NCBI GenBank assembly: GCA_963794265.1
Contig: CAWCDJ010000007.1
Coordinates: 478,846 to 542,845, forward strand
DNA from: Bryobacterales bacterium
Lineage (GTDB): Bacteria > Acidobacteriota > Terriglobia > Bryobacterales > Bryobacteraceae
Direction: 5' to 3'
DNA length: 64,000 bases
Part shown: positions 3,350-46,027 of the stretch, piece by piece
Layout of the letters: each line of letters starts with the position of its first letter
Numbering within the stretch: position 1 is the stretch's first letter
The notes under the pieces: generated by a model
Seen by the model: only the letters and a program-made list of their open reading frames with translations
Databases searched by the model: none
What the model was told of the DNA's origin: nothing
Position numbers and translations under genes: made by a program

Positions 3350-6300
3350 CTAGTTCAGCGATGCGAGGACGCTTCTGGCCCCCACCAGATCTGGACTGAT
3401 CTCTACCGCCTGGCTCAGTTCCGCTTTCGCCTGCGCCTGCTCGTCGAGGCCGAGGTATCCGAGTCCGGTCAGGTAATGTGCGTTAGCGGATTGCGCCCGT
3501 GAGGACAGTGCACGGCCTTGCCTGCCGGCCTGTGCCGGCCGCGCAAGATCGTTCTTTCCAGTCTCCACCAGGTTTTCGAACGCAGCCTTGGCCTGGTCGT
3601 TCCGGCCGAGCTTTTGTAGAGCCAGGGCCGTGTAGTACGACTGGGCACTGCCAGTGATTGCGCGGCCGCGACGGCGGCCTGCTGAGGTTTCGCGCGGTGC
3701 GACGGCTTTATTCCAGGCCTCGAGCGCTTTCTGGTGATCGCCGAGTCCTTCGTAAGCCACTCCTGTCCAGTATGAAACTTCCGCGTTCCGCGCGCCGGCA
3801 CCGAATCCCAGTGGCAGATTGGACGGGACATCGACCGCCGCTTTCAGATCGGCCAAAGCTTCCTGGTACCGCTTGGCCTTAATGTTCGTCTGGCTGCGCA
3901 GGATGTGGGCATCCGTCCAGTGCTCCGCCACGTTCAGGTTGGCGCCTTCCGCCACGGCGAACGGCCGGCCCGTCATCATCCCGATGGCTTCGTCGTAGTT
4001 ACCCAAAGCCACCTTCAATGCGATGGCCCGATTTTCGGCATCGTCCCGGCGCGCGACCACCGCCGCGTTCTGCTCGAACAGCTTCATGCGCTTTTCGAGC
4101 GGCGTCCCCGCCTGTTCATAGAGCTCATCGAGCTCGGTGAAATGCAGCGGGTACTTGGGGTTGAGCGAAACGGCCTTTTCCAGCTCCGCTATAGCCTTAT
4201 TCAGATCGGCGCCGGATTTCTGATGCATGTAGGCGGTCGCCAGGTTCCGGTGAACGATCGCGAAGGAGGGGTCAATGGCTTCCGAGGCTTCCCACATTTT
4301 GGCGGCTTCCCCGGGCTGCCAATCGTATAGGAGGTTGCCCAGGTAATAGGGTGCGCGCGCATCGTGCGGATTCGTGCGCACCGCCTGCCGCAGCACGTCG
4401 ATTTCCTCGTTCTGGAACGGGAAGACGTAATCCGCGGGCATCGCCTTGGCCAACTGGTAATACTCCGAGGCCCGTTGCGGCTGGCCCAGTTTTTCGGCGA
4501 AGTAGGCCAGGTAGTAGTAGGCCATGGGGTGGATTTTCGATTTGTCCGGCGCGGCCTTGGTCATCTGGAGCAGCACATCCGTACCGTCCTGCCAGAGGCC
4601 CGCGTCAAGATACTCGGCGGCAGTTTCCTGCGCGGTCGCGGGGTGCGTGTACATCGTGGAGGCCAGAGTCTTGGCAGCCGCCGCGCCTCTCGAAGCCAGC
4701 CACACCTCGGCCATGGAGCGAACGTCCAGCGGATCGGCCCGGTGAGAGGCGGCCGCCACCACTTCGAGAGCTTCCTTCGGCCGGTCGAGGTGGCGCAGCA
4801 CCGCAGCCTTCAGGTTCTGAGCCCGGATGTTCAAAGCATTGGAATCGATCGAGCGGTCGACGAAATCGAGCGCCGCGGCCATGTCCCCGCGCGAGACCGC
4901 AATCTCGGCCAGGGAATAATAGCCCGCCGCTTTCCACGCCTGACTCCACGTGGCTTTATAGAGATAGGTATAGGCTTCGTCTGTCTTTCCTTCCGCTTTT
5001 AGAACGGCGCCTAAATAGTAGATCGCCTCTCCGTCTTTGGGATCGGTGTACCGGTCGGTGAGGCGAGCCAGGGCGGTCCGCAGGTACTTCTCGGCTTCCT
5101 CGTACCGCGCCTTCCGGAAACAGGCGATGCCCATCGCGGTGTTCACGCGGGTGTCGCCCGGGTCGCGCCGCAGGGCCTCTTCCCAGTACGGAATCGGATT
5201 CACGCTGGGATCATGGAATTGCTCTGCGCGCAGCCCCGTCAGGTACAGCTCCTCATTGCTCTTGATGTCCTTGGGCGCGGCCGGCGAGGTCACCACCTTG
5301 GGCGTCGGCAACGGCTTGAGCCGGACCGGTTGGTAGGAGACGAGTTCCTTGCCGCCGTCCGAAATGGAAGCCACCAGGTCATGGGGGTCGATGCCTTCGG
5401 GCACCGGGACCTGCTTCACGTACGGTTTGCCCGGATTGATGGCGATGGTCTCGCTCAATAGCACCCGGTCTCCGGCTTTCAGCAACACCTGAGCGGCGTC
5501 GTGCGCGGACGTGGCGTAGAAGCCGACTTTCGCCGTGCCATTCGCCACCTCCAGATTGACCGCGGCATCCAGGTTGGCCTTCTTCACTCCGCCGATATCG
5601 CGGAAGGGATACCAGTTCATCGAGAACGACCGCGTCTCATAAGGTTGGAGCCAGCTATAATCCGGCTGGTTATCCGAGTAGCCCCCCACCATCAGCTCGA
5701 TATACGGGCCGTCGTTGTCGGTCAGAATTTTATCCCAGGCGCGCCCGCTGGGGCCGTTGCCCCAGGTCCAGAATTTCTTGCCGGGAACCACGTTGTGGTC
5801 CGCCACGCTCATCGTGCCGGCCTCTTTGCCGTGGTCGTAACCGGCAAAGAAATTGTCCTGGTAGTTCCATGCGAACACCGAGTTCGACTGAATATGGTTC
5901 TTGTACCAGCTGATGTCCACGCCTTTGGTGAAGTCCGCGCCGCTATACACGCTGTGGGAGATTGGCCAGTCCGTGAACACCCGTTTTGCGTGATAGACGC
6001 CGAACTGCGTACTCGGAGGAAAGATAACCTGGTAATCCTGGTCGGCGTGCACGGCCAGATTGGCGAAGCACAGCATCGTGTTCACGATCGGGGTGCGATT
6101 CAGGATGCGAACCGACGCTTCCAGGTAGGCCTTGCCCGGCCGCAGCGTGTAGCCCACCGCCCACCGCATGCGCTGCCGTACTTCCAGTTCGCCCACCCAA
6201 ACGGTCTTGCTGCCGTCGGGGTTCTCTTCCACTTTGTATTGCACGGGAAGGAAGGTGCTGGCCCGGTGGTGATGCGGGATGTTCCACTCCACGCCTCCGG

Positions 6301-6736
6301 AAATCCAGGCGCCGATCAGGCCGATCAGCGCAGGCTTGATCACGTGCTGCCGGTAGATGAAGTTGTAGTTGTTGGTCTTATCGACTCCCTCGATAATCCG
6401 GCCGCCGATCTCCGGCAGGATTCCGATGCGGATGTACTCATTCTCGAGATACACCACGGTGTAGGTCTTGTCGACTTTCTTGCCGGTGAGCGAGTCGTAC
6501 ATCGGATAGGGATAAACGGGCGCCAGCGCCCCTTGCGACTCTCTGCCGAAAAAGAACATCGGGTTGGGTTCCGGCGCGCCGGCCAGATACGTGGGGATCA
6601 CCATGGTGGTTTCCCGGACCGTCACCGAGGATGCATCGGCACCCCTCAAAAAAGACGTTCCAGCCAGCAGAACCATGGCCAGACACAACAATAGTGGGCT
6701 CGTCACCCCTTTACGGAACATGATGGCATTCTCCAA
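3350..6736 (-). CDS. secreted DUF5107 domain protein with long C-terminal TPR array
   Basis: Signal peptide (LLLCLAMVLLAGTSFLRGA). The N-terminal ~450 aa show DUF5107-like blocks (YLENEYIRIGILPEIGGRI, GGVEWNIPHHHRASTF, FWTWGNGPSG, IELMVGGYSDNQPDYSW). The rest is tandem TPR-like repeats. The start could be the internal ATG 6721. Confidence 0.8.
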   Translation of the reverse strand: MENAIMFRKGVTSPLLLCLAMVLLAGTSFLRGADASSVTVRETTMVIPTYLAGAPEPNPMFFFGRESQGALAPVYPYPMYDSLTGKKVDKTYTVVYLENEYIRIGILPEIGGRIIEGVDKTNNYNFIYRQHVIKPALIGLIGAWISGGVEWNIPHHHRASTFLPVQYKVEENPDGSKTVWVGELEVRQRMRWAVGYTLRPGKAYLEASVRILNRTPIVNTMLCFANLAVHADQDYQVIFPPSTQFGVYHAKRVFTDWPISHSVYSGADFTKGVDISWYKNHIQSNSVFAWNYQDNFFAGYDHGKEAGTMSVADHNVVPGKKFWTWGNGPSGRAWDKILTDNDGPYIELMVGGYSDNQPDYSWLQPYETRSFSMNWYPFRDIGGVKKANLDAAVNLEVANGTAKVGFYATSAHDAAQVLLKAGDRVLLSETIAINPGKPYVKQVPVPEGIDPHDLVASISDGGKELVSYQPVRLKPLPTPKVVTSPAAPKDIKSNEELYLTGLRAEQFHDPSVNPIPYWEEALRRDPGDTRVNTAMGIACFRKARYEEAEKYLRTALARLTDRYTDPKDGEAIYYLGAVLKAEGKTDEAYTYLYKATWSQAWKAAGYYSLAEIAVSRGDMAAALDFVDRSIDSNALNIRAQNLKAAVLRHLDRPKEALEVVAAASHRADPLDVRSMAEVWLASRGAAAAKTLASTMYTHPATAQETAAEYLDAGLWQDGTDVLLQMTKAAPDKSKIHPMAYYYLAYFAEKLGQPQRASEYYQLAKAMPADYVFPFQNEEIDVLRQAVRTNPHDARAPYYLGNLLYDWQPGEAAKMWEASEAIDPSFAIVHRNLATAYMHQKSGADLNKAIAELEKAVSLNPKYPLHFTELDELYEQAGTPLEKRMKLFEQNAAVVARRDDAENRAIALKVALGNYDEAIGMMTGRPFAVAEGANLNVAEHWTDAHILRSQTNIKAKRYQEALADLKAAVDVPSNLPLGFGAGARNAEVSYWTGVAYEGLGDHQKALEAWNKAVAPRETSAGRRRGRAITGSAQSYYTALALQKLGRNDQAKAAFENLVETGKNDLARPAQAGRQGRALSSRAQSANAHYLTGLGYLGLDEQAQAKAELSQAVEISPDLVGARSVLASLN

Positions 6737-6885
6737 AAAAGACCTGAAACGGCTATTGTACTCCGCAACCGGCGAGGCAGGGTACGTGTTTCCCCGGCCC
6801 TGGCTTCATCAGGCGCATTTCGCGGCCCTTAGTAATTGGTTTATACGATTGAAATAAATAGTTGTGGACCTTAATCTTAGGTATC

Positions 6886-8193
6886 ATGCGATGGATGCTT
6901 CTGGGGGCAATTCTGGGTGCTCTGGTCTCATTGCTGGCTGGTGAGGCTGTGCGGAGCGGCCTGCCTCCATTTCTCTATACGGCGGCGCCCCGATACGACG
7001 AGGCGGCCTGGAAACAAGGCGGCGAACGGTTTCCGGACGGCGCGCACCTGGTCCTGGCGACCGGCGAAACTCGGCGCGACTTGGCCCCGGGCTTCTTCGC
7101 TTCGGCGGATGCGGTGGTTTCGCACGATGGAACGCGGGTCTTATTTGCCGGACGCCGCGCCAGGCAGGATCGCTGGCAAATCTGGCAGGTGGACTTGGCG
7201 GGGGGCGCGCCGAAACGAGTGGTCGCCAGTTCCGATTCCTGTATTCGCCCGCTTTACCTCCCCGGAGGAGAGATCGTTTATACGCGGGTCACGCCTGGCG
7301 GCTCGGCGATCGAACTGGTCCGATCCGAGGGCCTGAAACCGGAAGTCCTGACCTACGCACCGGGCCGGTATCTGACCGATGACGTCCTCCAAGACGGCCG
7401 CATTCTCTTCGAATGGCGGGGCGATCTCTTCACGGTGTACCCGGACGGCACGGGCGTGGAAGCCCTGCGCTGCGATCACGGCCCTGAGCGCTCCGGAGGT
7501 CGGCAAGTTTCTTCCGGAGACGTGATCTTCAGCGTCGACGGCGGTCTTGCGCGCTTCACCTCCGCGCTGGCCACTCAGCAGAAACTGCCGCCGTCAGCAT
7601 TGGAAATCAGCGGCCCGGTTGCGGAAACGACACCCGGCCGGTGGTTGGTTGCGGCCCGGCCCCGCTCCGGCGGCGAGTACGCCATTTACACGGCTGAGCC
7701 TCGCGCCGCGGACCTATACCGCGTGGAGGCCCCGCACGGCGTCAATGCCGTGGAACCGGTGGCCCTGGCGGCACGAGTGCCGCCGCGCGATTTTCCCTCC
7801 GGCCTGGTTGCCACGCGGACCACCGGCAACCTCCTCTGTCTGAATGCGAGAGAATCGCAAACCCCCATCCAGGGAAACGTTCATTCGGTGCGGTTCTACA
7901 GCCGCAGTGCCGCCGGAAGGACGGAGTTGCTGGGGCAGACGAATGTGGCGTCGGATGGATCGTTTTACGTCGAAGTGCCCGCCGACCGGCCCATTCGCAT
8001 GGAACTCCTGAATGCCGCGGGTGTCCGCGTGCGCGCGGAGCAGCACTGGTTCTGGATGCGCCCCAGCGAACAGCGGATCTGCGTGGGTTGCCATGCCGGA
8101 CCGGAGCGGGCGCCGGAAAATAAGACCCCGGAGATCCTCACGCAAACCCTGACCCCGGTGAAGATGCTCCCAGATCATGGACGGACCCAATGA
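6886..8193 (+). CDS. secreted PD40/TolB-like beta-propeller protein with C-terminal single CxxCH haem-c module
   Basis: ATG 6886 (TTG 6862 also possible) gives the signal/TM segment MRWMLLGAILGALVSLLAG. PD40-like stretch VVSHDGTRVLFAGRRARQDRWQIWQVDLAGG is present. The C-terminal block reads DGSFYVEVPADRPIRMELLNAAG...HWFWMRPSEQRICVGCHAG, with CxxCH at nt 8080-8094. The stop overlaps the next start (ATGA 8190-8193). Confidence 0.7.
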   Translation: MRWMLLGAILGALVSLLAGEAVRSGLPPFLYTAAPRYDEAAWKQGGERFPDGAHLVLATGETRRDLAPGFFASADAVVSHDGTRVLFAGRRARQDRWQIWQVDLAGGAPKRVVASSDSCIRPLYLPGGEIVYTRVTPGGSAIELVRSEGLKPEVLTYAPGRYLTDDVLQDGRILFEWRGDLFTVYPDGTGVEALRCDHGPERSGGRQVSSGDVIFSVDGGLARFTSALATQQKLPPSALEISGPVAETTPGRWLVAARPRSGGEYAIYTAEPRAADLYRVEAPHGVNAVEPVALAARVPPRDFPSGLVATRTTGNLLCLNARESQTPIQGNVHSVRFYSRSAAGRTELLGQTNVASDGSFYVEVPADRPIRMELLNAAGVRVRAEQHWFWMRPSEQRICVGCHAGPERAPENKTPEILTQTLTPVKMLPDHGRTQ

Positions 8194-9815
8194 AACTGCG
8201 ATCTTGCCTCTATTTTTTGCCCTTGCTGGCTGCCGGCACGCTGATCGCGCAAAGCAACGGCCCCATTCGCTTCGAAGATGCTACACCCCAGTCGGGCACG
8301 GCATTCATTCATTCGTTTGGAGCGGAACAATTGGGTTCGCTGATCGAAAGCACGGGCGCGGGGTGCGTCTGGTTCGACTACAACAACGATGGCAGGCCGG
8401 ATCTGTTTGTGGTGAGCGGCCGCCCGCTGGGGAAGGGCATGCATCCGTATCCGCTGCGCCACCCGCCGGCGGTGATGCCGCACAACCACCTTTACCGCAA
8501 TGACGGCGCCGGCAAATTCACCGATGTGACGGACCAGGCCGGAGTAAGCGGCGACGGCTTCGGCTTCGCCGCGATCGCCGCGGATTTCGATAACGACGGC
8601 CATACCGACCTGCTGGTGACCAACTACGGCCATGTCACGCTGTACCGGAATCGCGGAGACGGGACATTCGAGGATGTGACCGCCAAGGCGGGCCTGGACG
8701 TGAAGGGGTGGGCCATTGGCGCCGCATGGCTCGACTACGACCGGGACGGTTGCGTCGATCTCTTCATCGGCCGCTATGTGAAGTTCGATCCTTCGTACCG
8801 ATCCTACTATGCCGCCGACAATTACCCGGGGCCGCTCGATTACGAAGCCGACAGCAACCTGCTGTTCCACAATACGTGCCACGGCGGATTCGTGGACGTC
8901 AGCGAGAAATCGGGCATCTCGAAACACAAAGGCCGCGCTATGGGCGTGACGGCCGCCGATTTCGACGGCGACGGCTACCCCGATATCTACGTGGCCAATG
9001 ACAAGACCGAAAACTTCCTCTTTCACAACCGGCGCGACGGGACGTTCGAAGAGATCGCGCTAGACGCGGGCGCGGCGTTTGGACAGGACGGGGAATCGAC
9101 CTCCGCGATGGGGCCGGTATTCTTCGATATTAATAATGACGGGCATGCCGATCTTTGGGTGAGCGATTCCAAGTACAACCGGCTGCTTCGGAACTCCGGC
9201 AAGCTGCCGTTCACGGACGTGACTCTCGAAGCCGGCATCTCCCAGCGGACGGCGCAATACACCAGTTGGGGCTCGGGAGCCTTTGACTTCGATAACGACG
9301 GGCTGAAGGACATCCTGATCTTCCATGGCGGTCTGATCCACCTGATTCCCGAAGAAGATTCGGTGTTCCGAAATCTGGGCGGCGGCAAATTCCAGGACGT
9401 CTCGGCACAGGCCGGCCCGTTCTTCGCCACCAAGAGCGTGGGCCGCGGCGCCTGCTTCGCGGATTACGACGGCGACGGCAAGGTGGACGCCTACCTGGTG
9501 AACCTGGGCGCGCCTGGAGTGCTGCTCAGGAACACTTCTCCTTCCACCGGGCACTGGCTTTTCATCAAGCTGGTGGGAACCCGGAGCAACCGCGATGGAA
9601 TCGGCGCCAAGGTGGAAGTGGACGCCGGCGAATTGAAGCAATTCTCGCAACGCGTGGCCGGGTCCGGATACCTGAGCCAGAACGACGGCCGGCTGCACTT
9701 CGGCCTCGGGCCACACAACAAAGTGGACCGCATCACCGTCACGTGGCCGAGCGGAGTCCGCCAGGTAGTGGAGGCGGTGAACGCCGACCAGGTGATCACG
9801 ATCACGGAGAAGTGA
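8190..9815 (+). CDS. CRTAC1 family protein (FG-GAP/VCBS repeats + ASPIC/UnbV domain), paralogue 1
   Basis: Signal MKLRSCLYFLPLLAAGTLIAQ. Repeated FG-GAP units (FDYNNDGRPDLFV, DFDNDGHTDLLV, DYDRDGCVDLFI, DFDGDGYPDIYV). C-terminal UnbV/ASPIC block NHWLFIKLVGTRSNRDGIGAKVEV...GSGYLSQNDGRLHFGLG. Confidence 0.9.
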   Translation: MKLRSCLYFLPLLAAGTLIAQSNGPIRFEDATPQSGTAFIHSFGAEQLGSLIESTGAGCVWFDYNNDGRPDLFVVSGRPLGKGMHPYPLRHPPAVMPHNHLYRNDGAGKFTDVTDQAGVSGDGFGFAAIAADFDNDGHTDLLVTNYGHVTLYRNRGDGTFEDVTAKAGLDVKGWAIGAAWLDYDRDGCVDLFIGRYVKFDPSYRSYYAADNYPGPLDYEADSNLLFHNTCHGGFVDVSEKSGISKHKGRAMGVTAADFDGDGYPDIYVANDKTENFLFHNRRDGTFEEIALDAGAAFGQDGESTSAMGPVFFDINNDGHADLWVSDSKYNRLLRNSGKLPFTDVTLEAGISQRTAQYTSWGSGAFDFDNDGLKDILIFHGGLIHLIPEEDSVFRNLGGGKFQDVSAQAGPFFATKSVGRGACFADYDGDGKVDAYLVNLGAPGVLLRNTSPSTGHWLFIKLVGTRSNRDGIGAKVEVDAGELKQFSQRVAGSGYLSQNDGRLHFGLGPHNKVDRITVTWPSGVRQVVEAVNADQVITITEK

Positions 9816-9817
9816 AT

Positions 9818-11638
9818 ATGCGACGGGCGATTTGGGCGCTTCTCATCGTTGTCACGGCCGCCGGGCAAACCCGCTACAAGAGCCCCGACGACCTGGCCCT
9901 GTCGCCCGACGGGAAGCGCCTCTTCGTGGTGTGCAGCGGCAGCGGCGAAGTCCTGGTCGTGGATACGGCCACGCGCGCCGTCGCGGGGCGCGTAACGGTG
10001 GGAAAGGTCCCGCGTGGAATCGCCCTGGCGCCCGGGGGAAAACGCTTCTACGTGACCAATTCGTGGTCCGATACGGTCAGCGAGGTAGACGCGACATCGT
10101 TGCAGGTGCTGCGAACACTGCCCGCTGGTTTCGAACCCACCGGCGTCACGGTGGATGCCGCGCGCAATGTGCTGTACGTGGCGAACCGGCTCTCCGACGA
10201 TATCTCAATGATCGACCTGGCCGCCGGGGCTGATGTGCAGCGTTTTGTGGCGGGCCGTGGCGCCAGCTACGTGGCGGCATCGCCCGATGGAGCGCACATC
10301 TACGTCACCCACATTTATCCGGAGATCGGCAAATTCCGGGCAACTCCGAGATCGGAAATCACGGAATTGGATGCCAGGCGCCAGGTGGTCGCCAACCGTC
10401 TCGCTCTGAATAACGCCGCGGGCGTATTTCACATGGCTTTTTCGCGCGATGGCCGCGTCGGTATCGCCGGCGAGTTGCGGCCCAAGAACCTGGTGCCCCT
10501 GGCGCATGTGGAACACGGAGGGGTGTTCGGGAATTCGCTGGCCGTATTTGGCGAAGGCATAGAGGGTGTGGCGCAGATGCCCCTGGACCAGATCGACACC
10601 TTCTCTTCGCTGCCATTCGGGGTCGCGATTTCACCCGACGAAACGCGGGCTTACGTTTCGGCCAGCGGGTCGAACGAGATCCTGATCCTGGACCTGCCGA
10701 AACTCGTGGCGGCGGCGCGCTCCCCACAAGCGGCCCGGCTGGCCAACGATCTCTCAGCGTCGGCCCGGTATGTGCTGGCGCATGTTCCCGTGGGGCACAA
10801 TCCGCGTGCCATCCAGGTCTCGCCCGACGGGAAACTGCTCTATGTCGCGAACCGGCTCGACGACACTGTTTCCATCGTGGACACGGCGCGCGCGTCGGTC
10901 GTCGCCAATATCCCGCTGGGCGGCCCCGGCACATTGACACCCGAGCGGCGCGGCGAGCGCCTGTTCTACTCGTCGATGTACTCGTTCGGCCACCAGTTCG
11001 GTTGCGCCAACTGCCATCTCGACTCGACTTTCGACGGCCTCTCCTGGGACCTGGAACCCGATGGTTTCGGCATCGACATCGTGGACAATCGCGCGTTGGA
11101 AGAGATCAAGGACACGGCCCCCTACAAGTGGAACGGCTCCAATCCGGACCTCCAAACCGAGTGCGGTCCCCGGACGGAGCGATTCTTCTTCCGCTCGGAG
11201 GGCTTCCGGGGGGCCGATTTGGAAGATCTGGTGAAGTACGTCCAATCGATTCCCCTGCGTCCCAACCGGTACCGGCTGCCTGGAGGAGAAATGACTCCGG
11301 CGCAGGAGCGAGGCCGCGCCATCTTCACGCGCACCGCCAAGCAAGACGGCACGCCCATTCCGGAGATCCTGCAGTGCGCGGTCTGTCATGCCGGGAAGTA
11401 TCACACCAGCAAAGTCTCGATGGACGTGGGCACAGGCAAGCCGTCAGACCGCTCCCCGCTGGTGGACATACCGCAACTGACCAACGTAGTGAACAGCGCG
11501 CCATATCTGCATGACGGCTCGGCGGCGACGCTCGAAGAGATATGGACGGTTTTCAACCCGCACGACCAGCACGGCGTGACGAACGATCTGACCAAAGATG
11601 AGCTTAACGACCTCATCGAGTACCTGAAAACGCTATGA
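9818..11638 (+). CDS. secreted YVTN-type beta-propeller fused to di-haem cytochrome c peroxidase/MauG-like domain
   Basis: ATG 9818 lies 2 nt after the upstream stop. Signal MRRAIWALLIVVTAAG. YVTN-like repeats (SPDGKRLFVVCSGSGEVLVVD, GGKRFYVTNSWSDTVSEVD, NVLYVANRLSDDISMID, SPDGKLLYVANRLDDTVSIVD). The C-terminal CCP-like domain has CANCH (11003-11017), KWNG, CAVCH (11375-11389) and PYLHDGS. Confidence 0.85.
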   Translation: MRRAIWALLIVVTAAGQTRYKSPDDLALSPDGKRLFVVCSGSGEVLVVDTATRAVAGRVTVGKVPRGIALAPGGKRFYVTNSWSDTVSEVDATSLQVLRTLPAGFEPTGVTVDAARNVLYVANRLSDDISMIDLAAGADVQRFVAGRGASYVAASPDGAHIYVTHIYPEIGKFRATPRSEITELDARRQVVANRLALNNAAGVFHMAFSRDGRVGIAGELRPKNLVPLAHVEHGGVFGNSLAVFGEGIEGVAQMPLDQIDTFSSLPFGVAISPDETRAYVSASGSNEILILDLPKLVAAARSPQAARLANDLSASARYVLAHVPVGHNPRAIQVSPDGKLLYVANRLDDTVSIVDTARASVVANIPLGGPGTLTPERRGERLFYSSMYSFGHQFGCANCHLDSTFDGLSWDLEPDGFGIDIVDNRALEEIKDTAPYKWNGSNPDLQTECGPRTERFFFRSEGFRGADLEDLVKYVQSIPLRPNRYRLPGGEMTPAQERGRAIFTRTAKQDGTPIPEILQCAVCHAGKYHTSKVSMDVGTGKPSDRSPLVDIPQLTNVVNSAPYLHDGSAATLEEIWTVFNPHDQHGVTNDLTKDELNDLIEYLKTL

Positions 11639-12759
11639 AGAGTGACGACTTCGAGATGACGGAACGGCGGGCGGCGGGTGGCGGAGGGCGGTCCTCTTTC
11701 CGCGCCGTCATGGTTCTGCTTCTGGCCTGCTGCGCGATGGCCGCGGAAATGCCGCGATTCCGGTGGCAGAATTTCACGGTCGCGAATGGATTGCCGAACA
11801 ACCGTGTCTATTGCGTGGCGGTGGATGGCGACAGGGTCTGGGCCGGCACGGACAACGGGCTGGCGCTCTACGAAAACGGCCGCTGGAAGACCTTCACGGT
11901 GGCGGACGGGCTGGCACATCGGGCGGTGCTCTCGCTGGCTGTCGACAAGCGAACCCACAATCTCTGGATCGGAACCATGGGCGGGCTCAGCCGCTACTCG
12001 GCCGGGCGGATCGACACTTTCACGCAACTGTCCAGCGGCCTGCCCAACGACGTGGTCTATGGAGTCTCCGTGCTGGGCGATTGTGTCTGGGTGGCCACGG
12101 CCGCCGGCGGGGCCCGCTACAACACGCGGACCAAACAATGGAACCTCTACAACGAGCGGAACACCCCGATGTACGAAATCTGGACCTATGGCGTGACCGC
12201 CACACCCGAAAAAGTCTATTACGCGGTGTGGGGCGGGGGAGTGCTCGAGTACGACGTGAAGACGGAGCGGTGGAAAGACTATAACGACCCGGACGGCGAA
12301 AACGAGATCGTGCTGTTCAAAGACCAGGGGTTGATCCACGAGATCACCACCTCCGTAAGTTATGTGAACCATATTCTATGGGCGGCCACGTACTTCGGCG
12401 TTTCCCGGTACGATGGCCGGAATTGGCGAAACTTTCTGGATAAGGACAGCGGCCTTCCGAGCAACTTCCTGAACCAGGTCAAGACCGTGGACGGAACGCG
12501 CACGTGGTTTTCCACCGATAAAGGCCTGGCCTACTACGACGGGAAATGTTGGGCCACGTATCGACCCGCGCTGGATACTCACGCGCCCGAAATGCTGGTG
12601 CGGGATGAAAACGGAGCCGTCACGCGCGTGCCCGTCGAATCCGCGCCGGCGCATCATTATACTTTCGCCGTCGATTTTCAGAACGACGACATTTGGGTGG
12701 CGACCGCCAAGGGCGTGAGCCACGGAATTCATATTTCACCCGGAGAATCCGACCGATGA
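11635..12759 (+). CDS. stand-alone two-component-regulator-propeller (Reg_prop) repeat protein
   Basis: ATG 11635 overlaps the upstream TGA. Repeats present: GLPNNRVYCVAVDGDRVWAGTDNGLALY, GLAHRAVLSLAVD..LWIGTMGGLSRY, GLPNDVVYGVSVLGDCVWVATAAGGARY, GLPSNFLNQVKTVDGTRTWFSTDKGLAYY. No kinase, HTH or receiver domain follows. Confidence 0.8.
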   Translation: MKSDDFEMTERRAAGGGGRSSFRAVMVLLLACCAMAAEMPRFRWQNFTVANGLPNNRVYCVAVDGDRVWAGTDNGLALYENGRWKTFTVADGLAHRAVLSLAVDKRTHNLWIGTMGGLSRYSAGRIDTFTQLSSGLPNDVVYGVSVLGDCVWVATAAGGARYNTRTKQWNLYNERNTPMYEIWTYGVTATPEKVYYAVWGGGVLEYDVKTERWKDYNDPDGENEIVLFKDQGLIHEITTSVSYVNHILWAATYFGVSRYDGRNWRNFLDKDSGLPSNFLNQVKTVDGTRTWFSTDKGLAYYDGKCWATYRPALDTHAPEMLVRDENGAVTRVPVESAPAHHYTFAVDFQNDDIWVATAKGVSHGIHISPGESDR

Positions 12760-13262
12760 ACACCATTGAATTGATCGACCGAATCGCAGGCGCGACTGAA
12801 GTGAAGAAGCGCGCCATCACTGCGCTCTCGGTCCTGAATGAAGCCTACGCCTACCCCAAGCCCAGCTCCTTTTCGCGCGGGCTGCGCATTGACCTGGGGA
12901 GCGTCGCGATCCTGCTGATTTCCGGCACCGCCAGCATCGACGAGAACGGCAACAGCGTTCATATCGGCGACTTTCGCGCTCAGCTTCGGCGCACGTACCT
13001 GAATATCACCGGACTGTTGGCGGCGGAGGGCGCGACGTGGGCAGATGTTGTCCGGACGACGTGCTATTTGCGGGACATCGAACGCGATTACGCGGCTTTC
13101 AACGAAGAGCGTACCACGTTCTTCGCGGAGCAGGGTCTGGAGCCGCTGCCGGCGTCCACCGGCATCCAGGCGATTCTCTGCCGGCCCGAACTGCTGGTGG
13201 AAATCGAGGCGATCGCAATCCTGGTCGCGCCACATCGGGAACAGCCATGCAATGGCAACTGA
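12756..13262 (+). CDS. RidA/YjgF family protein
   Basis: ATG 12756 overlaps the upstream TGA. YjgF-like core (LLISGTASIDENGNSVHIGDFRAQLRRTYLNITGLLAAEGATWADVVRTTCYLRD ... LVEIEAIA). Confidence 0.8.
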   Translation: MNTIELIDRIAGATEVKKRAITALSVLNEAYAYPKPSSFSRGLRIDLGSVAILLISGTASIDENGNSVHIGDFRAQLRRTYLNITGLLAAEGATWADVVRTTCYLRDIERDYAAFNEERTTFFAEQGLEPLPASTGIQAILCRPELLVEIEAIAILVAPHREQPCNGN

Positions 13263-15058
13263 TTGCGGCAGCGCTGGCCGTGCCGGTGTGTCTGAGCGCT
13301 CAGGCGCCGGTGTGTTCCTGCGGGCGCCAACCGCAGGGTGCGCCGGTAAGCCGCACGCTCGAGCCCTATGGCGGCGTTCCGGAAGACCTGCAGCCATTTT
13401 CGAAATTCACCAAGCCCTACTACGAAAACTACACCAGGACGCCGGAATATAACGGCGCGGCCGCCGATGCGACTACCGTTCCGCCATCTGAGGTGAGCGA
13501 AGTCCCGATCGGTTTCCTGGGACCGATTCAGGATAATAAGGACGAGCCGCTGGGGTTGGCCATGCTGCATGGCGCCCAACTCGCGATCGACGAAGCCAAC
13601 GCCCGCGGGGGATATTGCGGAAAGCCGTTCCGGCTGAAAATTCATAATGACGCCGCTACGTGGGGCGCGTCGAGCAATGAACTCGTGAAGATGATCTACG
13701 ACGAGAAGGTGTGGGCCATGCTCGGGTCGATCAGCGGCGATTCCACGCATATCTCGCTGCGGGTCTCGCTGCGGGCGGAACTGCCCATCGTCAACAGCGC
13801 TGCCACCGACCCTACCATTCCCGAAACCGAGATTCCCTGGATACTGACGACGATTCAGGACGACCGCGTGCAGTCCTACACGCTGGCGCGCCGCATCTAT
13901 ACGGATCTGAAACTCAAGCGCGTGGCCCTGCTCCGCGTCAACGAGAGGTACGGCCGCCTCGGCGTGGTGAAGTTTCGGGATGCCTCGCGGCGGCTCGGGC
14001 ACCCCGTGATGATCGAACAGAAGTTCGATCCGGCGGCGACCACGTTCACGCACCAGCTTCGGGTGATCGACGATTCGGGAGTGGACGCAATCGTGCTATG
14101 GTGCGATGCCCCGGCTGCCGGGACCATTCTTAAAGAGATGCGGCAGATGGGAATGAAGCAGCCGGTCTTCGGCAGCGCCCGGGTGGTCGGGGAAGCTCTC
14201 TTTCAAAACGCCGGCAGTGCCGCCGAAGGCTTGGAAGCGGTCTACCCGTTCGATCCCAATCGCGACGATCCCGGATGGCTGGGTTTTCAAAAGCGGTTCG
14301 CGTCGGCCTACCACGCCAGGACCGATGCCTTTTCCGCCCTGGCGTTCGACACCATGAATATCCTGCTCGGAGCGATCTGCCGCGGGGGGCTGAACCGTGG
14401 CGAGATTCGCAATGCGCTCTATGCTTTGCAGACTTATAAGGGGGTCACCGGGGAGATGGTGTTCGACCCCAACGCCAAGAACATCGCCCCGATGTATCTG
14501 GGCAAGGTGCACAATGGCCGGTGGACATACAGGCGCTACAGCATGCAGAAACCGTACGCCACGGTGGGCGCAGCCGGCGTAAAATACAACGGTCCGGCTT
14601 CATCCTGGACCGCCGGTGCGCACCGCAAGATCGGCCTGTTCGGCCCGGGGGCGGCGGCGCTGGCGCCGGCCTTGAGCAGCCCCGGGTACGAGGTGATCGG
14701 CGTCTCCTCGGAAACTGCCTGGGGTAAGGGGTCCGACGAACTGGTGAAAATGATCTACGACCCCGATGTGATCGGTATCGTGGCCACCGATCGGGCTTCC
14801 GCGCATCTCGCTGAGCAAATCGCGGTGAAGGCATTGATCCCGGTCGTGGCCATCTCGGCCGATCGTACGTTGACTTCGGCGAACGTGCCATGGATCTTCC
14901 GCCTGAACAGCGGTACCCCTGCAGCCGATGCCGTACGCTGCTTCAGGGATGCCGATTCCCGGGCCGGCGGGAGCCGCGATTCGATCCGCGAGCGATTGGC
15001 CTCGGGAATGATGGTGGCCGGTCGATTCTCGTTCACATCCAGCGGCGAACTCCGCTAG
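13247..15058 (+). CDS. secreted periplasmic-binding-protein type 1 (LivK/amino-acid-amide type) protein with extra partial C-terminal PBP1 repeat
   Basis: ATG 13247 gives the signal MQWQLIAAALAVPVCLSAQA and overlaps the RidA 3' end by 16 nt. Leu/Ile/Val-binding-like blocks (IGFLGPIQDNKDEPLGLAMLHGAQLAIDEANARGG, LVKMIYDEKVWAMLGSISGDSTH, LPIVNSAATDPTI). A second degenerate copy occurs after aa ~460. Confidence 0.85.
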   Translation: MQWQLIAAALAVPVCLSAQAPVCSCGRQPQGAPVSRTLEPYGGVPEDLQPFSKFTKPYYENYTRTPEYNGAAADATTVPPSEVSEVPIGFLGPIQDNKDEPLGLAMLHGAQLAIDEANARGGYCGKPFRLKIHNDAATWGASSNELVKMIYDEKVWAMLGSISGDSTHISLRVSLRAELPIVNSAATDPTIPETEIPWILTTIQDDRVQSYTLARRIYTDLKLKRVALLRVNERYGRLGVVKFRDASRRLGHPVMIEQKFDPAATTFTHQLRVIDDSGVDAIVLWCDAPAAGTILKEMRQMGMKQPVFGSARVVGEALFQNAGSAAEGLEAVYPFDPNRDDPGWLGFQKRFASAYHARTDAFSALAFDTMNILLGAICRGGLNRGEIRNALYALQTYKGVTGEMVFDPNAKNIAPMYLGKVHNGRWTYRRYSMQKPYATVGAAGVKYNGPASSWTAGAHRKIGLFGPGAAALAPALSSPGYEVIGVSSETAWGKGSDELVKMIYDPDVIGIVATDRASAHLAEQIAVKALIPVVAISADRTLTSANVPWIFRLNSGTPAADAVRCFRDADSRAGGSRDSIRERLASGMMVAGRFSFTSSGELR

Positions 15059-15328
15059 GCTGCAGCGCAACCCTCCGCGACCTCATTTCACCCATGCGGA
15101 AAGCAGGCTTTCCGAGAGATTTCCGGAGGGCCTGCCTGCGGCAGCGTCCGTTTCCGCCTCCGGAGGGGCCGCCTTCGCCCCGGCCTTCGGAAGATAACCC
15201 CAATCCTCTCAACTGACTACGTGTTGCCATGGCCAGCCGGGCCATGCCGCCTTGTAAACCAAAAGCAATCCTACAAATAAAGCGATTCGCTCCTTCAAAA
15301 TCTTCCATTTTGCATATCGTCAAATCAA

Positions 15329-15358
15329 TTGACATACAGATGCAACAGGACTTACAAT
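15329..15358 (+). promoter_or_regulatory. sigma-70-like promoter candidate (TTGACA-18 nt-TACAAT)
   Basis: TTGACA at 15329-15334 and TACAAT at 15353-15358 sit in an AT-richer intergenic stretch, ~270 nt upstream of the TonB-receptor ATG (15629). Confidence 0.5.
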
Positions 15359-15628
15359 CAACCCGATATAGATTGCGGGTCTGAGAATCCTTTTCTCTCG
15401 GAAAAGGACTTGTGTCTGAAGTTCGAGCACGGCAATATTCCGTCGGGCCACCGGAAATAAAACCCTCTGGCTGGTCTCAGGCACGCACTCTGGGTTTAAG
15501 TCGGGCCATTATTGCATTCGGCCGGGAGGCGCAGGTTCGCTTTGGCAGGTTCGCAGTGTCGACTACGGGCCTGGAGTTGGGGGGACAGTTCGGTTGAATG
15601 GTTCCACGTGGAATCAGAAAGGGGTCAT

Positions 15629-18600
15629 ATGAAGAGTGTCTTTTCATGGGCTATGGCGTTGCTCTTAATCCTTGCCGCAACTGGCATGGCCCAGGATTAC
15701 CGAGGACGCATCGAAGGCTTGGTCACAGACCAAAGCAAAGCGGTGATCGCGGGAGCAAACGTGACACTGCTGAACGTCAACACGGGAGTCAAGGTCGTCA
15801 AGCAGACCAGCGAAACTGGCCTGTACCTGTTCGACTTGGTTGATCCCGGCACTTATTCGGTCACCATCGAGTCGACCGGATTCAACCGCTTCATCCAGGA
15901 AAACATTACTGTTCAGACGCGCGGTGACGTTACCGTCAACGCCATGCTGACTCCTGGAGCGGTACAACAGAGCATCACGGTGGATGAGACGCCCGCGGCG
16001 GTGGAGTTCAACTCCGCCAACAAAGAGCTGACCATCGATTCGAAATTGGCGGAGGAAGTGCCGCGAATTGATCGAAACCCGTTTAAATTAACGTTGATCG
16101 CCCCGTCGGCGGTCAATACCCGCGGTGAAATGCAGCCGTACCATTCCTGGTCCGCCAACAGCGTGGACCTGGGTGGCGACACGAACCTGAAGAACGACCT
16201 CGAAGTCGACGGCATGCCGATCGGTATGGGCCAGAAGAACTCAACGCCGCCCAACACCGATGCCGTGCAGGAAGTCATCGTCTCCACCAACAGCGTAGAC
16301 GCCGAATCCGGCCACAGCGCTGGTGGCGGCATCACGATCACTACGAAATCCGGCACCAACGAATTTCATGGCACCGGCTTTTACGTGGGCCGTTATCCCT
16401 GGCTCAGCGCGGAAGCCGACCGCACGCGTTTCAGCGAGAATTCCCAGCGCCAGAATATGTTCGGCGGCACTCTCGGCAACCCGATCAAGAAGAACAAGCT
16501 GTTCAACTTCTTCTCGATGGAGGACTGGAAGGTCGGCTACCCGAATAGTTATGTCCGGACCGTACCGACCGCCCTCCAGGCACAAGGCGATTTCTCGCAG
16601 ACGTTGAACATCACCGGTGGCCAATCGACGATTTTCGACCCCTGGACCTCGGTACTGAATGCGGATGGCTCGGTGACCGTTCAGCCGTTCGCGGGCAATG
16701 TGATTCCGCAGAGCCGCATGGATCCTCTGGCGGCCAGCCTGATGAAGCAGTTCTGGGCGCCCAACAATGCCGGCATCAATATCACCGGCGCAAACAACTA
16801 TCTGAAGGGCTACAACGAAAAGTACGGATATTACAACTTTTCGGAGAGGGCCGACTACAATATCAACGATAAGTGGAAGGTCTTCGGACGTCTGGCCCAC
16901 TACAATACGACCGATATCGCGGGGAACCCGACACCGAACAACTCCGAACTCTACGTCCCGACAGGTACCGCGCGAGCGGCCTGGAACGCGGGCGGCGATG
17001 CCATTTGGAGCATCAATTCGCGCACCGTGGCAGAGTTTCGCGGTGACTGGCACAAGCTTCTGGACGCCTACGTTTCCACGCCCCTCGGTTCGAGCGGCTG
17101 GGGATCGATCTGGCCGAACAATGCCTGGTACGCACCGTATCAGACGGCTTCGGTTGGCGCGCCGGTCTACTTCCCCGATATGAACATCGGCGGACAAGGG
17201 TTTGGCGGCGGCGGTTTCTACTGGAACCAGGCGCCCAAGGGCGAAGCGATGTCCGCCAAGATCGCGCAGCAAAGAGGCTCGCACTATATCAAAGCCGGCT
17301 TTGAACAGCGCGAAAGCTACGGGCTCAGCTACGTGTCGAGCACGTCGAATTTCTATTTCAATCAGGCTTTGACGGCCAACACGTTCAACAATCCCGATAC
17401 CCTGCACTATGGCAATCCGTACGCCACCTTCCTGCTGGGCGCCTTGGATGGCTCCTCGCAGATGATCGGCGGTCCGGTTCCCGACGCGCACGTGAAGTTC
17501 TACGGCATGTATATCCAGGACGACTGGAAGGTGTCGCCGAGACTCACGTTGAACTTAGGCCTCCGGAACGAGTACGAGACGCCGCTCTACGATCCGCAGC
17601 ACAACTTCTCGCAGGGGTTGAACCTTTCGGCGGCGGTGCCGGAAATGCAGGCAACTCCTCCGGTCATGCCGGCGGCAGCCCTCAACATCGTAGGCAATAA
17701 CTTCTACCACTTTACAGGCCAATGGAACTTCACCAGCAGCAGCCATCCGGGTATGTTCGACGCCCAGAAACTGGCACTGCAGCCGCGCGTCGGCTTGGCT
17801 TACCGCATTAACGACAAGACGGCTTTCCGGTTTGGCTACGCGCGATACCTGACCCCGTACGAAATGAATATCGCGCTGGCGCCGGTTTCCGGTTATGAGA
17901 CAGTCGGGTTCCTGGAACCGCCGTTCCTGGGGATGACGGGCTACCAGAACACGCTGTCGCCCCTCCAGGGCGTGCCGCAGGAGACCATTTCGAATCCGTA
18001 TCCGACCTCCACCAATCCGCTGCTGCCCATTCTGGGCAAAGCCTACGGTGGGAATCTCGGGCGTGGCGGCCAGCCGCTGCTGTGGTACAACCCGAATCAG
18101 CAGAAGGGTCGCAATGACCGCTTTAACTTCAATATTCAGCGCCAGATTGTCAACCAGATCGTGGTTTCGGGAACCTACTTCCTGAATATCGGCAATCAGC
18201 AGTACACCAAGGCGTTGAACCAGATCAACCCGGCACTGGAAACGCAGTATCAGAACCAGTTGAACGTTCAGGTGGCAAATCCTTTCTATCACTACCTGAA
18301 CCAGACCCTGATGCCGGGTCCGCTGTATAACCAGCAAACGGTTTCCTTAGGCTCTTTGCTGGTGCCTTATCCGCAGTACGGCGGCTTGTACGAATTGGGC
18401 GACCTGGGCGCCGGCGAGCGGTATCAGTCGGTCGAACTGAAGGCGCAGAAGCAGTTCAGCAAGGGCTACAACTTCTTGGTGTCGTATGTATACATTCGGG
18501 AGAAGGCCCAGACCAATGGCTTCCTGAACGGCGGCGTGTTCAACGACCAGGAATGGTACTCGAACCAGCTCGTCTGGCAGGATAGCAATCAGCCGCATCA

Positions 18601-19147: not shown

Positions 19148-19167
19148 GGCCACGTTCGAATACGGCT

Positions 19168-19206
19168 AAAAACAGCGGCGGGCGAAAGCCCGCCGCTGTT
19201 TTTGTG
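19168..19206 (+). terminator. intrinsic terminator
   Basis: AAAAACAGCGGCGGGC-GAAA-GCCCGCCGCTGTTTTT forms a perfect GC-rich stem with a GAAA loop and a T-tract, 21 nt after the receptor stop. Confidence 0.85.
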
Positions 19207-19272
19207 TTTGGCGGGTAACGCCAAATCCGAAGTATATTGATAGGTAGTGTTTCGTACGGCGCGAATTCACCC

Positions 19273-23499: not shown

Positions 23500-23600
23500 T
23501 AGCGGGGGACCGCGCTGCCAGCCATGTGCCGCCCTGTTCCGCCCGCAGCGGTGAGGTGGGTTAAGATAAGCCTGCTAATCCTGGTTTCTGGAGTGGACTC

Positions 23601-26690: not shown

Positions 26691-26721
26691 GCCGGGAGCC
26701 GCGGGCGAAGGCTGCGCCGTC

Positions 26722-32634: not shown

Positions 32635-32878
32635 AAATTACCTTCTCTCGGGGCTTCGCACTGCAATGAGACTAACCCGACTGTTCTGTTGTCGATGAGC
32701 GATCGCTCTCGCTGGTTCTTGTCGCGGTGAGACCACCGCGACCAACCCCAAAGCAAATTACGCCTGTGGTCAAACGTAATGCAAATCTACTAGGAAATCA
32801 AGGGTTATATGGGGAATCGCAGGGCATTTGCGCAATTTCAGCTCCGGAATTGGCCGGTGCCCGGAAAGTGGCTTTTGG

Positions 32879-32933
32879 TCTATGAAAAACGGGAGGCGAT
32901 CGGCGAAAAAGACCGTCAATCTATGAAAAACGG
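32879..32933. repeat. 14-bp perfect direct repeat TCTATGAAAAACGG x2, 41-bp period, in receptor upstream region
   Basis: Copies lie at 32879-32892 and 32920-32933. The spacing is not a multiple of 3, and the repeats sit in the 446-bp non-coding gap between the TPR gene stop and the receptor start. Confidence 0.6.
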
Positions 32934-33080
32934 AGTGCGGATGCCCGGATTTTTGGACAACCGACCGGGCGCCTCCGGCGCGCGAAATAGGGCTGTGGAA
33001 ATTTCGAGCGAGGACGGCCAAAAGCCTAAGGGCATTTGCCGGCGCTGTGGAGGTTTTGGCCAGTAGCCGGCCGGAACTCC

Positions 33081-34202: not shown

Positions 34203-34467
34203 TTCGCCACCATTTTACCCGAATTCAGGCGGCTCCTGCCGCCGGCTTCGCGCCTCGGAGGCGGCGCGGCGCGTAACCGCCTCGGAGCGGCAACGCTTCC
34301 CTGCCAGGAGTTACAATACGTGCGAGCATGAAGTTCGTCCTGGTCCTGCCGGTGTCGAACGCGGCAGAGGGGGCTGCGAGCGGCCCGTGTTTTCAGAAGG
34401 CGATCGGCTTCGACCGCTCGAAGCCGCGCGCCCGGGCTTTCCTCCAGGCACCGGGACGGCCGAAGAA

Positions 34468-44814: not shown

Positions 44815-44817
44815 CCT

Positions 44818-45924: not shown

Positions 45925-46027
45925 ATCTTTTCACCGCCGAGACGCCGAGGCGCCGGGAAGGCCATCGTCTCGACGATGAATCCCACGGAGCCGCTACCGT
46001 CAGGGAGCGGGCCGGGCAGGCCGGCGG

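Follow-up and report, generated by a model that had tools for sequence, protein, structure and literature searches.

The six-gene operon

The window analysed here is a stretch of 64,000 nucleotides from a Bryobacterales bacterium of the family Bryobacteraceae (assembly GCA_963794265.1, contig CAWCDJ010000007.1, positions 478,846 to 542,845). Positions 6886-15058 of the window are occupied by six open reading frames (ORFs), all on the + strand, in which neighbours overlap or nearly abut. The genes encode a haem protein of 435 residues similar to the alpha subunit of hydrazine synthase (HZS) (P1, 6886-8193), a CRTAC1-family protein (P2, 8190-9815), a haem protein of 606 residues similar to fused HZS beta and gamma subunits (P3, 9818-11638), a lone Reg_prop propeller of 374 residues (P4, 11635-12759), a Rid-fold protein of 168 residues (P5, 12756-13262) and a LivK/LivJ-type binding protein of 603 residues (P6, 13247-15058). 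True homology of P1 to HZS alpha and of P3 to fused HZS beta-gamma is evident in both sequence and fold, and the three haem c sites are all retained. In at least two phyla the six genes are passed on as one block. The core of the operon was described in 2025, and the operon belongs to a recently described, functionally uncharacterised kind.

The ORFs were taken from an ORF list and their junctions were read directly. ATGA overlaps are located at 8190 (P1/P2), 11635 (P3/P4) and 12756 (P4/P5). At the P2/P3 junction a TGA stop codon (9813-9815) is followed by AT and then by the ATG at 9818, and the overlap of P5 and P6 is 16 nt in length (13247-13262). A first-pass annotation, made from the letters of the window alone, had described six coupled ORFs, and all of its coordinates and junctions were recovered on re-reading. 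It had also assigned signal-like N-termini to five of the six products; hydrophobic N-termini are present in P1, P2, P3, P4 and P6 and absent in P5. Profile searches with Pfam and NCBIfam agree with the gene content that it proposed, namely a propeller with one CxxCH, a CRTAC1 protein, a YVTN propeller with a di-haem domain, a Reg_prop propeller, a RidA fold and a type I periplasmic binding protein (PBP1). The first ~37 residues of P4 are unconserved even in the L039 relative (loci of relatives are numbered with the prefix L), in which P4 is 90% identical, so the true start of P4 may be a few codons downstream, for example at Met8. This may open a gap of ~20 nt or less between P3 and P4.

Intergenic gaps are found at the two ends of the operon alone. 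There are ~150 nt 5′ of P1, beyond which lies a divergent gene for a DUF5107-TPR protein (3350-6736), and 453 nt 3′ of P6, followed by a gene for a TonB-dependent-type outer-membrane protein. The ~57 nt directly 5′ of P1 are conserved among the orthologous loci of Bryobacterales, and the sequence farther upstream is unrelated. This conserved stretch (6829-6885, + strand) contains a promoter-like TTGAAA (6849-6854), a 17-nt spacer and TAATCT (6872-6877), a -10-like box that ends 8 nt before the ATG. It probably acts as a promoter, and a near-leaderless transcript for P1 is suggested. A conserved promoter-like element is found 5′ of P1 only and, together with the gene spacing, this points to co-transcription of the six genes as one operon. 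The identity of the proteins and the operon status are regarded as near certain.

The 6829-6885 element was not flagged in a consensus promoter scan. A CTAGT(A/G) motif lies inside it, and a similar ACTAGTG is found upstream of the L098 cluster, which belongs to a distant second lineage. Within the 453-nt gap after P6, the consensus scan alone gave a terminator-like hairpin (15388-15408, + strand) and a promoter-like site for the following gene (15329-15358, + strand). Both are weak evidence, because such promoter and terminator sites are no commoner than in shuffled sequence, their counts being at or below those of the shuffled control. An Rfam scan of 6000-16000 returned no credible match.

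P1, the alpha-like haem protein

P1 consists of a signal or anchor helix, a six-bladed propeller of the TolB/Tricorn_N type and an HZS_alpha middle domain, in which the only haem c site is found. The protein matches the Pfam HZS_alpha middle domain with an E value of 3e-16. In the alignment with the alpha chain of Kuenenia HZS (PDB 5c2v_A; E 4e-13), both the propeller N-terminus and the haem-bearing middle domain are aligned. When an AlphaFold model of P1 (predicted local distance difference test (pLDDT) score 78) was searched with Foldseek, 5c2v_A was the top PDB match (E 1e-18, TMq 0.69) and the next fold was TolB (2e-9, 0.48). The score against the NCBIfam model hydrazine_alpha is 58 bits, compared with a cut-off of 800. 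In an exhaustive search, relatives of P1 formed 2,517 clusters at 50% identity, of which 223 had an E value below 1e-30.

The haem c motif of P1, CVGCH (8080-8094, + strand; C399, C402 and H403), is aligned with the alpha-I motif of HZS. It is invariant in both sets of orthologous loci (84/84 and 80/80) and across 34 family representatives down to 25% identity. A W-x-W-x-R-P-x-E-x-R motif is located ahead of it, and this motif and CxGCH are both essentially invariant over the same 34 representatives. R392, R397 and W388, near the haem, are conserved across the family.

Residues of the alpha subunit were numbered with a chain offset of +27, obtained from the PDB alignment and checked against the published comparison of HZS homologues (Hagglund et al. 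2025, Genome Biol Evol, PMC12758564). By this alignment alpha-His587 corresponds to H403 of P1. In HZS itself Tyr591 is the ligand of haem alpha-I, and His587, although part of the CxxCH, is turned towards a Zn site. The position of alpha-Tyr591 is occupied by Glu407 in the window and by Glu, Gln, Ala, Thr or Ser in orthologues, and never by Tyr. It has been reported that a 2-residue gap is placed at Tyr591 in P1-type homologues, for which a canonical His-ligated haem is predicted, and that the Zn-site residue alpha-Cys303 is not conserved in HZS homologues (PMC12758564). No conserved sixth ligand was found near the P1 haem among the 34 family representatives, and the site is apparently His-ligated and open. 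P1 ends 32 residues past its only CxxCH, at 435 residues compared with 782 for the HZS-alpha chain, and the alpha-II haem domain, which in HZS is C-terminal and holds a bis-His haem, is therefore missing.

P3, the fused beta-gamma-like haem protein

P3 is made up of a signal peptide, a seven-bladed YVTN/lactonase propeller whose sixth blade contains a helical insertion, and a di-haem domain resembling cytochrome c peroxidase (CCP), MauG and HZS-gamma. Residues 20-357 are aligned with the full length of HZS-beta (5c2v_B; E 3e-41), with the blade-6 helical insertion included. The same chain was the best Foldseek match to the propeller of the P3 model (E 5e-32, TMt 0.88, root-mean-square deviation 2.9), with the next match ten orders of magnitude behind. 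For the haem domain, HZS-gamma (5c2v_C) was matched with an E value of 5e-18, whereas the best CCP reached only 7e-5. Among the NCBIfam models the highest score was for hydrazine_BC, the Scalindua-type fusion, at 194 bits (cut-off 1250), followed by hydrazine_beta at 162 bits (cut-off 560) and hydrazine_gamma at 75 bits (cut-off 625). Pfam CCP_MauG was matched at 27.7 bits (cut-off 25.6), and RoxA-like matches were also recorded. Weak MbnH-family and MauG-like matches were obtained for the haem domain, and the solved di-haem enzyme 6e1c was aligned to it.

Residues of the gamma subunit were numbered with a chain offset of +39, obtained and checked in the same way as for alpha. The first haem motif, CANCH (11003-11017, + strand), is invariant (74/74 and 41/41 loci), and its residues C396, C399 and H400 correspond to Cys102, Cys105 and His106 of HZS gamma-I. 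The third covalent link to haem gamma-I in HZS is made by gamma-Cys165 (chain residue 126 plus the offset of 39), the equivalent of which is Cys449 of P3 (11162-11164, + strand). This position is Cys in 70/73 and 39/40 loci (109/113 in all), and the first haem is probably cross-linked to Cys449 in the lineage of the window. Trp438 (11129-11131, + strand), in the motif PYKWNG, takes the place of gamma-His144 of HZS and corresponds to the Trp between the haems of CCP and MauG; it is invariant in 74/74 and 40/40 loci. The register of PYKWNG against PFRHEG of HZS-gamma is a reading of the present alignment; it agrees with a structure-based statement in PMC12758564, in which Trp is reported at the gamma-His144 position for homologue clades I-III.

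The second haem motif, CAVCH (11375-11389, + strand; C520, C523 and H524), likely binds the electron-entry haem. This motif, H565 and H585 are invariant in every locus checked, as is the PYLHDG motif (P562-G567). His585 (11570-11572, + strand) is the probable distal ligand of the second haem; its alignment, together with G586, to the HG of HZS-gamma hints at a bis-His haem. The Mg-binding Glu of the HZS-beta loop is not clearly conserved in P3, where the alignment is ambiguous. These haem-pocket assignments are to be read as predictions from alignment.

The features shared by P3 with bacterial CCP and with MauG and MbnH are two CxxCH motifs, an inter-haem Trp, a P-Y-x-H-D-G motif and secretion. 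They raise the possibility that the operon serves as a plain periplasmic peroxidase for defence against oxidants, with the di-haem domain of P3 acting as a bacterial CCP and the remaining proteins as accessory or unrelated passengers. Such a function would suit the CCP_MauG and RoxA-like matches, the invariance of the CCP-type Trp and of PYLHDG, the aerobic or facultative soil bacteria that act as hosts, and an Fnr-like regulator found upstream of the cluster in one lineage (see below). However, P3 differs from these enzymes in its fusion to a seven-bladed propeller, in the extra haem-linking Cys, and in having a second haem protein as partner. The distal ligand is likely His, as in HZS-gamma, and not the Met of CCP or the Tyr of MauG, and sequence similarity to CCP and MauG is much weaker than to HZS-gamma. 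A plain peroxidase would also leave unexplained the co-inheritance of P3, across phyla, with another haem protein, a further three secreted proteins and the Rid-like protein of the cytoplasm. It is considered unlikely.

Relation to hydrazine synthase and its homologues

The first-pass annotation had stated that the two haem proteins follow the subunit logic of HZS, and this can now be raised to homology with alpha, beta and gamma in both sequence and fold. The likeness is not limited to generic propellers, since the middle domain of alpha, the domain of gamma and the equivalent of Cys165 are all included. The features shared with HZS of Kuenenia stuttgartiensis (5C2V) are the alpha propeller with its haem-bearing middle domain, the beta propeller with the blade-6 helical insertion, and the gamma domain, which is di-haem and has a third Cys at haem gamma-I. 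The beta-gamma fusion is shared with Scalindua.

In contrast to HZS, the operon lacks the alpha-II haem domain, which leaves three haems rather than four, as well as the alpha-I Tyr ligand; Trp replaces gamma-His144, and the Zn-site Cys is unconserved in the published comparison. The gene order is reversed, with alpha first here. The host is a soil heterotroph, no anammox genes are present in the window, and equivalog scores are far under their cut-offs. No gene for HAO/HDH, nitrite reductase or any other nitrogen-cycle protein was found within the 64-kb window. As the residues that define HZS are absent, a hydrazine-type reaction is unlikely, and judged by its sequence the operon is very unlikely to make hydrazine.

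A broader HZS-like nitrogen reaction would convert nitric oxide (NO) to hydroxylamine at the gamma-like haem and condense this with ammonia or an amine at the alpha-like haem. The outcome would be formation of an N-N or N-C bond, or detoxification of NO and NH2OH, with the binding protein bringing the amine. Homology to all three HZS subunits, retention of both candidate catalytic haems, conservation of the gamma-I haem surroundings with the rare Cys165 equivalent included, and the amino acid/amide (HAAT) class of P6 are in keeping with such chemistry. It is opposed by the loss of the Tyr591 ligand, the unconserved alpha-Cys303 (PMC12758564) and the predicted His ligation of the P1 haem, and equally by the absent alpha-II domain and the Trp in place of gamma-His144. 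The equivalog scores (58 against 800 and 194 against 1250), the lack of nitrogen-cycle genes in the 64 kb and a Rid-like protein without the Arg of imine hydrolases also speak against it, and the same negative verdict was reached by Hagglund et al. (PMC12758564). A reaction of this type is judged to be improbable.

Co-localised pairs of alpha-like and beta-gamma-like genes have been sorted into clades I-IV (PMC12758564). In clades I and II a CRTAC1-family FG-GAP gene is located between the two, and clades II and III are without alpha-II and the C-terminal ~100 residues. The beta-gamma-like proteins have no extra haems in clade II and one in clade III, and two binding-protein genes lie downstream in clade III. 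These homologue clusters were judged unable to make hydrazine, with the same missing residues reported, and Bryobacteraceae proteins are present in the hit tables of that study. The operon in the window fits clade II on every listed feature: an alpha-like gene upstream, a CRTAC1 FG-GAP gene between, a fused beta-gamma-like gene downstream, no alpha-II, only two canonical haem motifs in the beta-gamma-like protein, no Tyr591 and Trp at gamma-His144. This assignment was made by the listed features and not by a joint tree.

There are differences from the published account. Binding-protein genes were reported for clade III only and anaerobes were stressed, whereas here a six-gene block is found in Acidobacteriota and Bacteroidota, with recurrent DAHP synthase. 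The Cys165 equivalent was given for clade I only, whereas Cys449 is kept here in the clade II lineage and in the second lineage. For the core, and for the clade III binding-protein genes, the remark of the first-pass annotation that it knew of no described pathway of this composition is out of date. No mention of the Rid-like protein or the Reg_prop propeller was found in the accessible portions of the text and supplements of PMC12758564 and PMC10732223.

HZS-like enzymes have been proposed to make up a wide family whose members act on other substrates (Dalcin Martins et al. 2023, PMC10732223). In Phycisphaerae UBA1845 and other subsea-tunnel genomes from that study, an hzsA-like gene is directly upstream of a fused hzsBC-like gene; the order of alpha-like before fused beta-gamma-like gene is shared with the window. 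The Phycisphaerae genomes also contain hao, nxr and further genes related to anammox, and the authors considered that they might represent new anammox bacteria. The operon studied here lies in an acidobacterium and has different accessory genes.

Accessory proteins

According to Pfam, P2 is a secreted CRTAC1-like protein with seven FG-GAP_3 repeats and UnbV_ASPIC. It was matched to the structure of human CRTAC1 (9etn) with an E value of 8e-23. Its identity to orthologues has a median of 76% in Bryobacterales and 54% in lineage 3, and is 43-50% in Bacteroidota.

P4 is a secreted protein with a single Reg_prop beta-propeller. Its closest solved relative is 4a2l, the periplasmic sensor domain of a Bacteroides hybrid two-component system (E 3e-26). 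The propeller is shared with such sensors, but their kinase and response-regulator domains are missing, as no output domain of either kind was found by Pfam in the 374 residues of P4. The resemblance to a glycan-sensing domain allows for a non-catalytic role, in which the operon would encode a secreted propeller assembly for binding or sensing, for example of polymers, with the haems as redox sensors or structural cofactors. Beta-propellers make up four of the six proteins, and the window holds many genes for glycan use and for TonB-type receptors, as well as further pairs of CRTAC1 and TPR genes. This role is hard to reconcile with the strict conservation of three haem sites and their surroundings over wide divergence, with the absence of a signalling output domain from the operon, and with the co-inheritance of cytoplasmic enzymes alongside the secreted proteins. 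The likelihood of a purely non-catalytic assembly is considered to be very small.

P5 has the Rid fold of the YjgF/RidA superfamily (Pfam Ribonuc_L-PSP, E 3e-18), and 34 solved Rid proteins were matched. As in the RidA family (PMC4433059), the conserved Glu of the EIEA motif is kept. P5 differs from that family in an extra N-terminal ~45 residues and in its context of secreted haem proteins rather than pyridoxal phosphate enzymes or amine oxidases. It differs also at the position of the catalytic Arg105 of RidA, where Ser134 (13155-13157) is found, in a pASTg sequence compared with pARs in three solved relatives. Orthologues have Ser at this position in 66/68 and 31/31 cases, or 97/99, the others being one Ala and one Leu; Arg was found in none. 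Arg105 binds the carboxylate of the substrate and is essential to imine hydrolysis, and for about 10% of the RidA subfamily a Ser has been reported, the effect of which is not known (Niehaus et al. 2015, PMC4433059). No signal peptide was found in P5 of any lineage. With Ser for Arg and no signal peptide, P5 is a cytoplasmic Rid-fold protein that offers no evidence for imine chemistry, and by its sequence it cannot be a normal imine deaminase. The hint at imine chemistry that was earlier drawn from RidA is accordingly weak, Arg being present in 0/99 orthologues.

A chorismatase-like function for P5 was also considered, on account of a match to FkbO/Hyg5 and of the DAHP synthase linkage described below. 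The FkbO/Hyg5 match scored 29.5 bits, the RutC and RidA models scored higher, no chorismatase was among the solved relatives, and the function is kept as no more than an idea.

P6 is a secreted type I periplasmic binding protein of the LivK/LivJ type (Peripla_BP_6, E 6e-42; 4gnr, E 1e-26), in the class of amino acid/amide (HAAT) binding proteins. The type I binding fold and the hydrophobic N-terminus are shared with LivK/LivJ ABC-transporter systems, but adjoining permease and ATPase genes are missing, both from the operon in the window and from the annotated relatives L082, L083 and L098. In other lineages a second binding protein (PBP2) is encoded by a separate gene. A C-terminal extension of P6 (14720-14944, + strand) is 46% identical to residues 183-256 of the L098 PBP2. 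This PBP2-like stretch is held within the C-terminal ~180 residues and also repeats the sequence of P6's own N-lobe. From its sequence, P6 looks like a full binding protein fused with a remnant of a second, PBP2.

Conservation across lineages

When species-representative genomes were scanned with two narrow search patterns, relatives were detected in 545 genomes. The best 80 of those 545 are metagenome-assembled genomes of Bryobacterales/Terriglobia, in which 63 loci were long enough for all six genes to be checked. Of the 63 loci, 59 have all six genes with the order and strand seen in the window. The order is also kept in 30 of 31 loci of a second lineage, which comes from metagenomes of peat, wetland and sediment and has a P1 that is only ~32% identical to that of the window. 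Since order and strand are kept while the flanking genes differ, the arrangement is not due to chance, and the co-conservation of the genes and the invariance of the haem motifs in orthologues both bear out the first-pass description.

In Bacteroidota, orthologues of all six genes are present in one cluster, with the CRTAC1 gene shifted upstream. Their identities to the window proteins are 29-31% (P1), 43-50% (P2), 37% (P3), 48-49% (P4), 61-65% (P5) and 40-42% (P6). P5 is the best conserved protein of the module across two distant lineages and P1 is the least conserved in every set; within Bryobacterales, P4 and P2 are better conserved than the haem proteins. The P3 orthologues of Bacteroidota (L082 and L083) contain a third CxxCH near the N-terminus, which fits clade III.

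A paralogous pair of alpha-like and beta-gamma-like genes was also observed in Bryobacteraceae (L048, 6711-13154, and L054). Redoxin, TonB_C and CarboxypepD_reg genes come before the pair, and a metal efflux system like CusCBA adjoins it. It is not accompanied by genes for CRTAC1, Reg_prop, Rid or binding proteins.

DAHP synthase and regulator genes in relatives

A gene for 3-deoxy-D-arabino-heptulosonate 7-phosphate (DAHP) synthase is linked to the cluster in many relatives and is absent from the window. Its products score 347 and 455 bits, above the curated NCBIfam cut-off of 335. Three positions were recorded. In the second lineage the gene lies between the Rid-like gene and PBP1 (30 loci; L098 17385-18272), and in Bacteroidota it lies between PBP1 and PBP2 (L083 15653-16513). 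In 12 Terriglobia loci it is directly 5′ of P1 on the same strand (L074 9150-9893; also L034, L040, L042, L045, L046, L055, L073, L075, L076, L080 and L081). The linkage outlives rearrangement, which argues for a functional tie to the shikimate pathway. This suggested tie is explained by no current hypothesis.

The hint of aromatic chemistry given by this linkage is one of several points that suit a maturation role like that of MauG or MbnH. P3 would then oxidise aromatic residues of P1, P2, P4 or P6 to form a protein-derived cofactor or cross-link, and the partner so modified would be the real catalyst. The inter-haem Trp is as in MauG, weak MbnH-family and MauG-like matches and the match to 6e1c were obtained, and the partners are secreted and strongly conserved, P4 and P2 exceeding the haem proteins in this respect within Bryobacterales. 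No small cofactor-bearing subunit gene is present, though, and no candidate modified residue was identified. The Tyr ligand of MauG is not evident, and the closest relative, HZS-gamma, acts on a small molecule. Protein maturation is regarded as an improbable function.

A gene for a Crp/Fnr-family regulator is found directly 5′ of the cluster in 35 loci of the second lineage (L085-L164; L098 8896-9585). The L098 protein has cysteines at C5, C8, C29 and C106, described as N-terminal cysteines. The regulator would suit control linked to oxygen or oxidants, as for bacterial CCP genes, and is taken as a hint only. Two further proposals were rejected. The regulator was tried as an NO sensor and gave generic Fnr/FixK-like scores only, far under the cut-offs. 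An Fnr-type box was sought upstream of the operon in L098, where a TGAC-N4-GTCA palindrome in the intergenic region (~9771-9782) is badly placed relative to a -10-like box.

Proposed mechanism

The explanation given most weight, with modest confidence, is that of a secreted three-haem HZS-like complex with CCP-type wiring, as read from sequence features. P1 and P3 would form a complex built as HZS is. The entry point for electrons would be the C-terminal haem of P3 (C520/H524, probably bis-His with H585), from which they would cross Trp438, as in bacterial CCP and MauG, to the first haem of P3 (H400). At the first haem, a small oxidant such as peroxide or an N-oxide would be activated. The product or oxidising equivalent would then be used at the ordinary His-ligated haem of P1, which would serve as a second reaction site. 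This two-site small-molecule mechanism is put forward tentatively, as a possibility held with less than even confidence.

The CRTAC1-like and Reg_prop propellers may be further secreted subunits or substrate-holding modules. P6, which has no transporter partner genes nearby, would capture the substrate or the product. On the cytoplasmic side of the same pathway the Rid-like protein would be at work, joined in many relatives by DAHP synthase. A nitrogenous substrate is possible, being neither supported nor excluded by the tests made here; the recurrent DAHP synthase linkage points towards the shikimate pathway rather than to such a substrate.

Several observations weigh against the three-haem complex as set out above. 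Two of the conserved proteins, the Rid-like protein and DAHP synthase, belong to the cytoplasm, and there is no transporter gene to connect them to the secreted part. In the model of P3, pLDDT is below 50 at residues 388-463 and 534-586 of the haem domain. The position of Cys449 is Asp in both Bacteroidota loci (L082 and L083), so the third haem link is lineage-specific and no constant of the module. Two acidic residues were also considered as stand-ins for residues of HZS, namely Glu407 of P1 for Tyr591 and Glu454 of P3 for Asp168. Both were rejected as general replacements, each position being Ala in the second lineage.

A more specific version is that the six-gene block, which is of eight genes in some lineages, is a widespread, uncharacterised enzyme system in bacteria of soils and sediments and the closest living relative of HZS. 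With the two-haem-site architecture of HZS, it would couple the activation of a small oxidant or N-oxide at one haem with the transformation of an amine or a shikimate-derived aromatic compound at the other. The product of this coupled reaction would be dealt with by a binding protein dedicated to it and by a Rid-fold enzyme of a new type. This version is speculative and its probability is judged to be low. If true, it would amount to new chemistry in the periplasm and would also show what HZS did before anammox.

Surroundings of the operon

Two further CRTAC1-family genes are present in the window (19237-21012 and 34387-36129), giving three CRTAC1 paralogues within 64 kb. Each of the two adjoins a TPR gene (21009-22208 and 33081-34202) and is also found beside a CarboxypepD_reg/TonB-type outer-membrane gene (15512-19147 and 29182-32634). 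The two regions span 15512-22208 and 29182-36129.

Glycan-use genes at 22267-29124 encode a mandelate racemase/enolase-family protein, a pectate-lyase-fold protein of 1029 residues with an SGL domain, and a GH92 mannosidase. A hopanoid biosynthesis cluster is located at 41921-51619. It contains genes for IspH/LytB, squalene-hopene cyclase, an HpnH-like radical SAM protein with DUF3463, an HpnA-like epimerase, an HpnG-like nucleosidase, two zinc alcohol dehydrogenases and squalene synthase.

Significance

The operon bears on the origin of hydrazine synthase, which was long thought to be without relatives. Relatives of HZS are common in ordinary soil bacteria, as they were found in 545 species-level genomes and in ~2,500 P1 clusters at 50% identity. 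Matches to ‘HZS_alpha’ or ‘hzs-like’ in Acidobacteriota and Bacteroidota are not to be taken as anammox potential.

What is new here is that a set of six genes is conserved, that its Rid protein is without the Arg and that DAHP synthase is linked to it; all three act as constraints on function. Any functional hypothesis must account for a set of partners that has so far been only partly reported: two secreted propellers, a Rid-fold protein, one or two transporterless binding proteins and, often, a DAHP synthase. As cultured hosts exist, in the aerobe Solibacter usitatus Ellin6076 and in Paludibaculum fermentans, the biochemistry of an HZS-like complex is accessible without anammox enrichment cultures.

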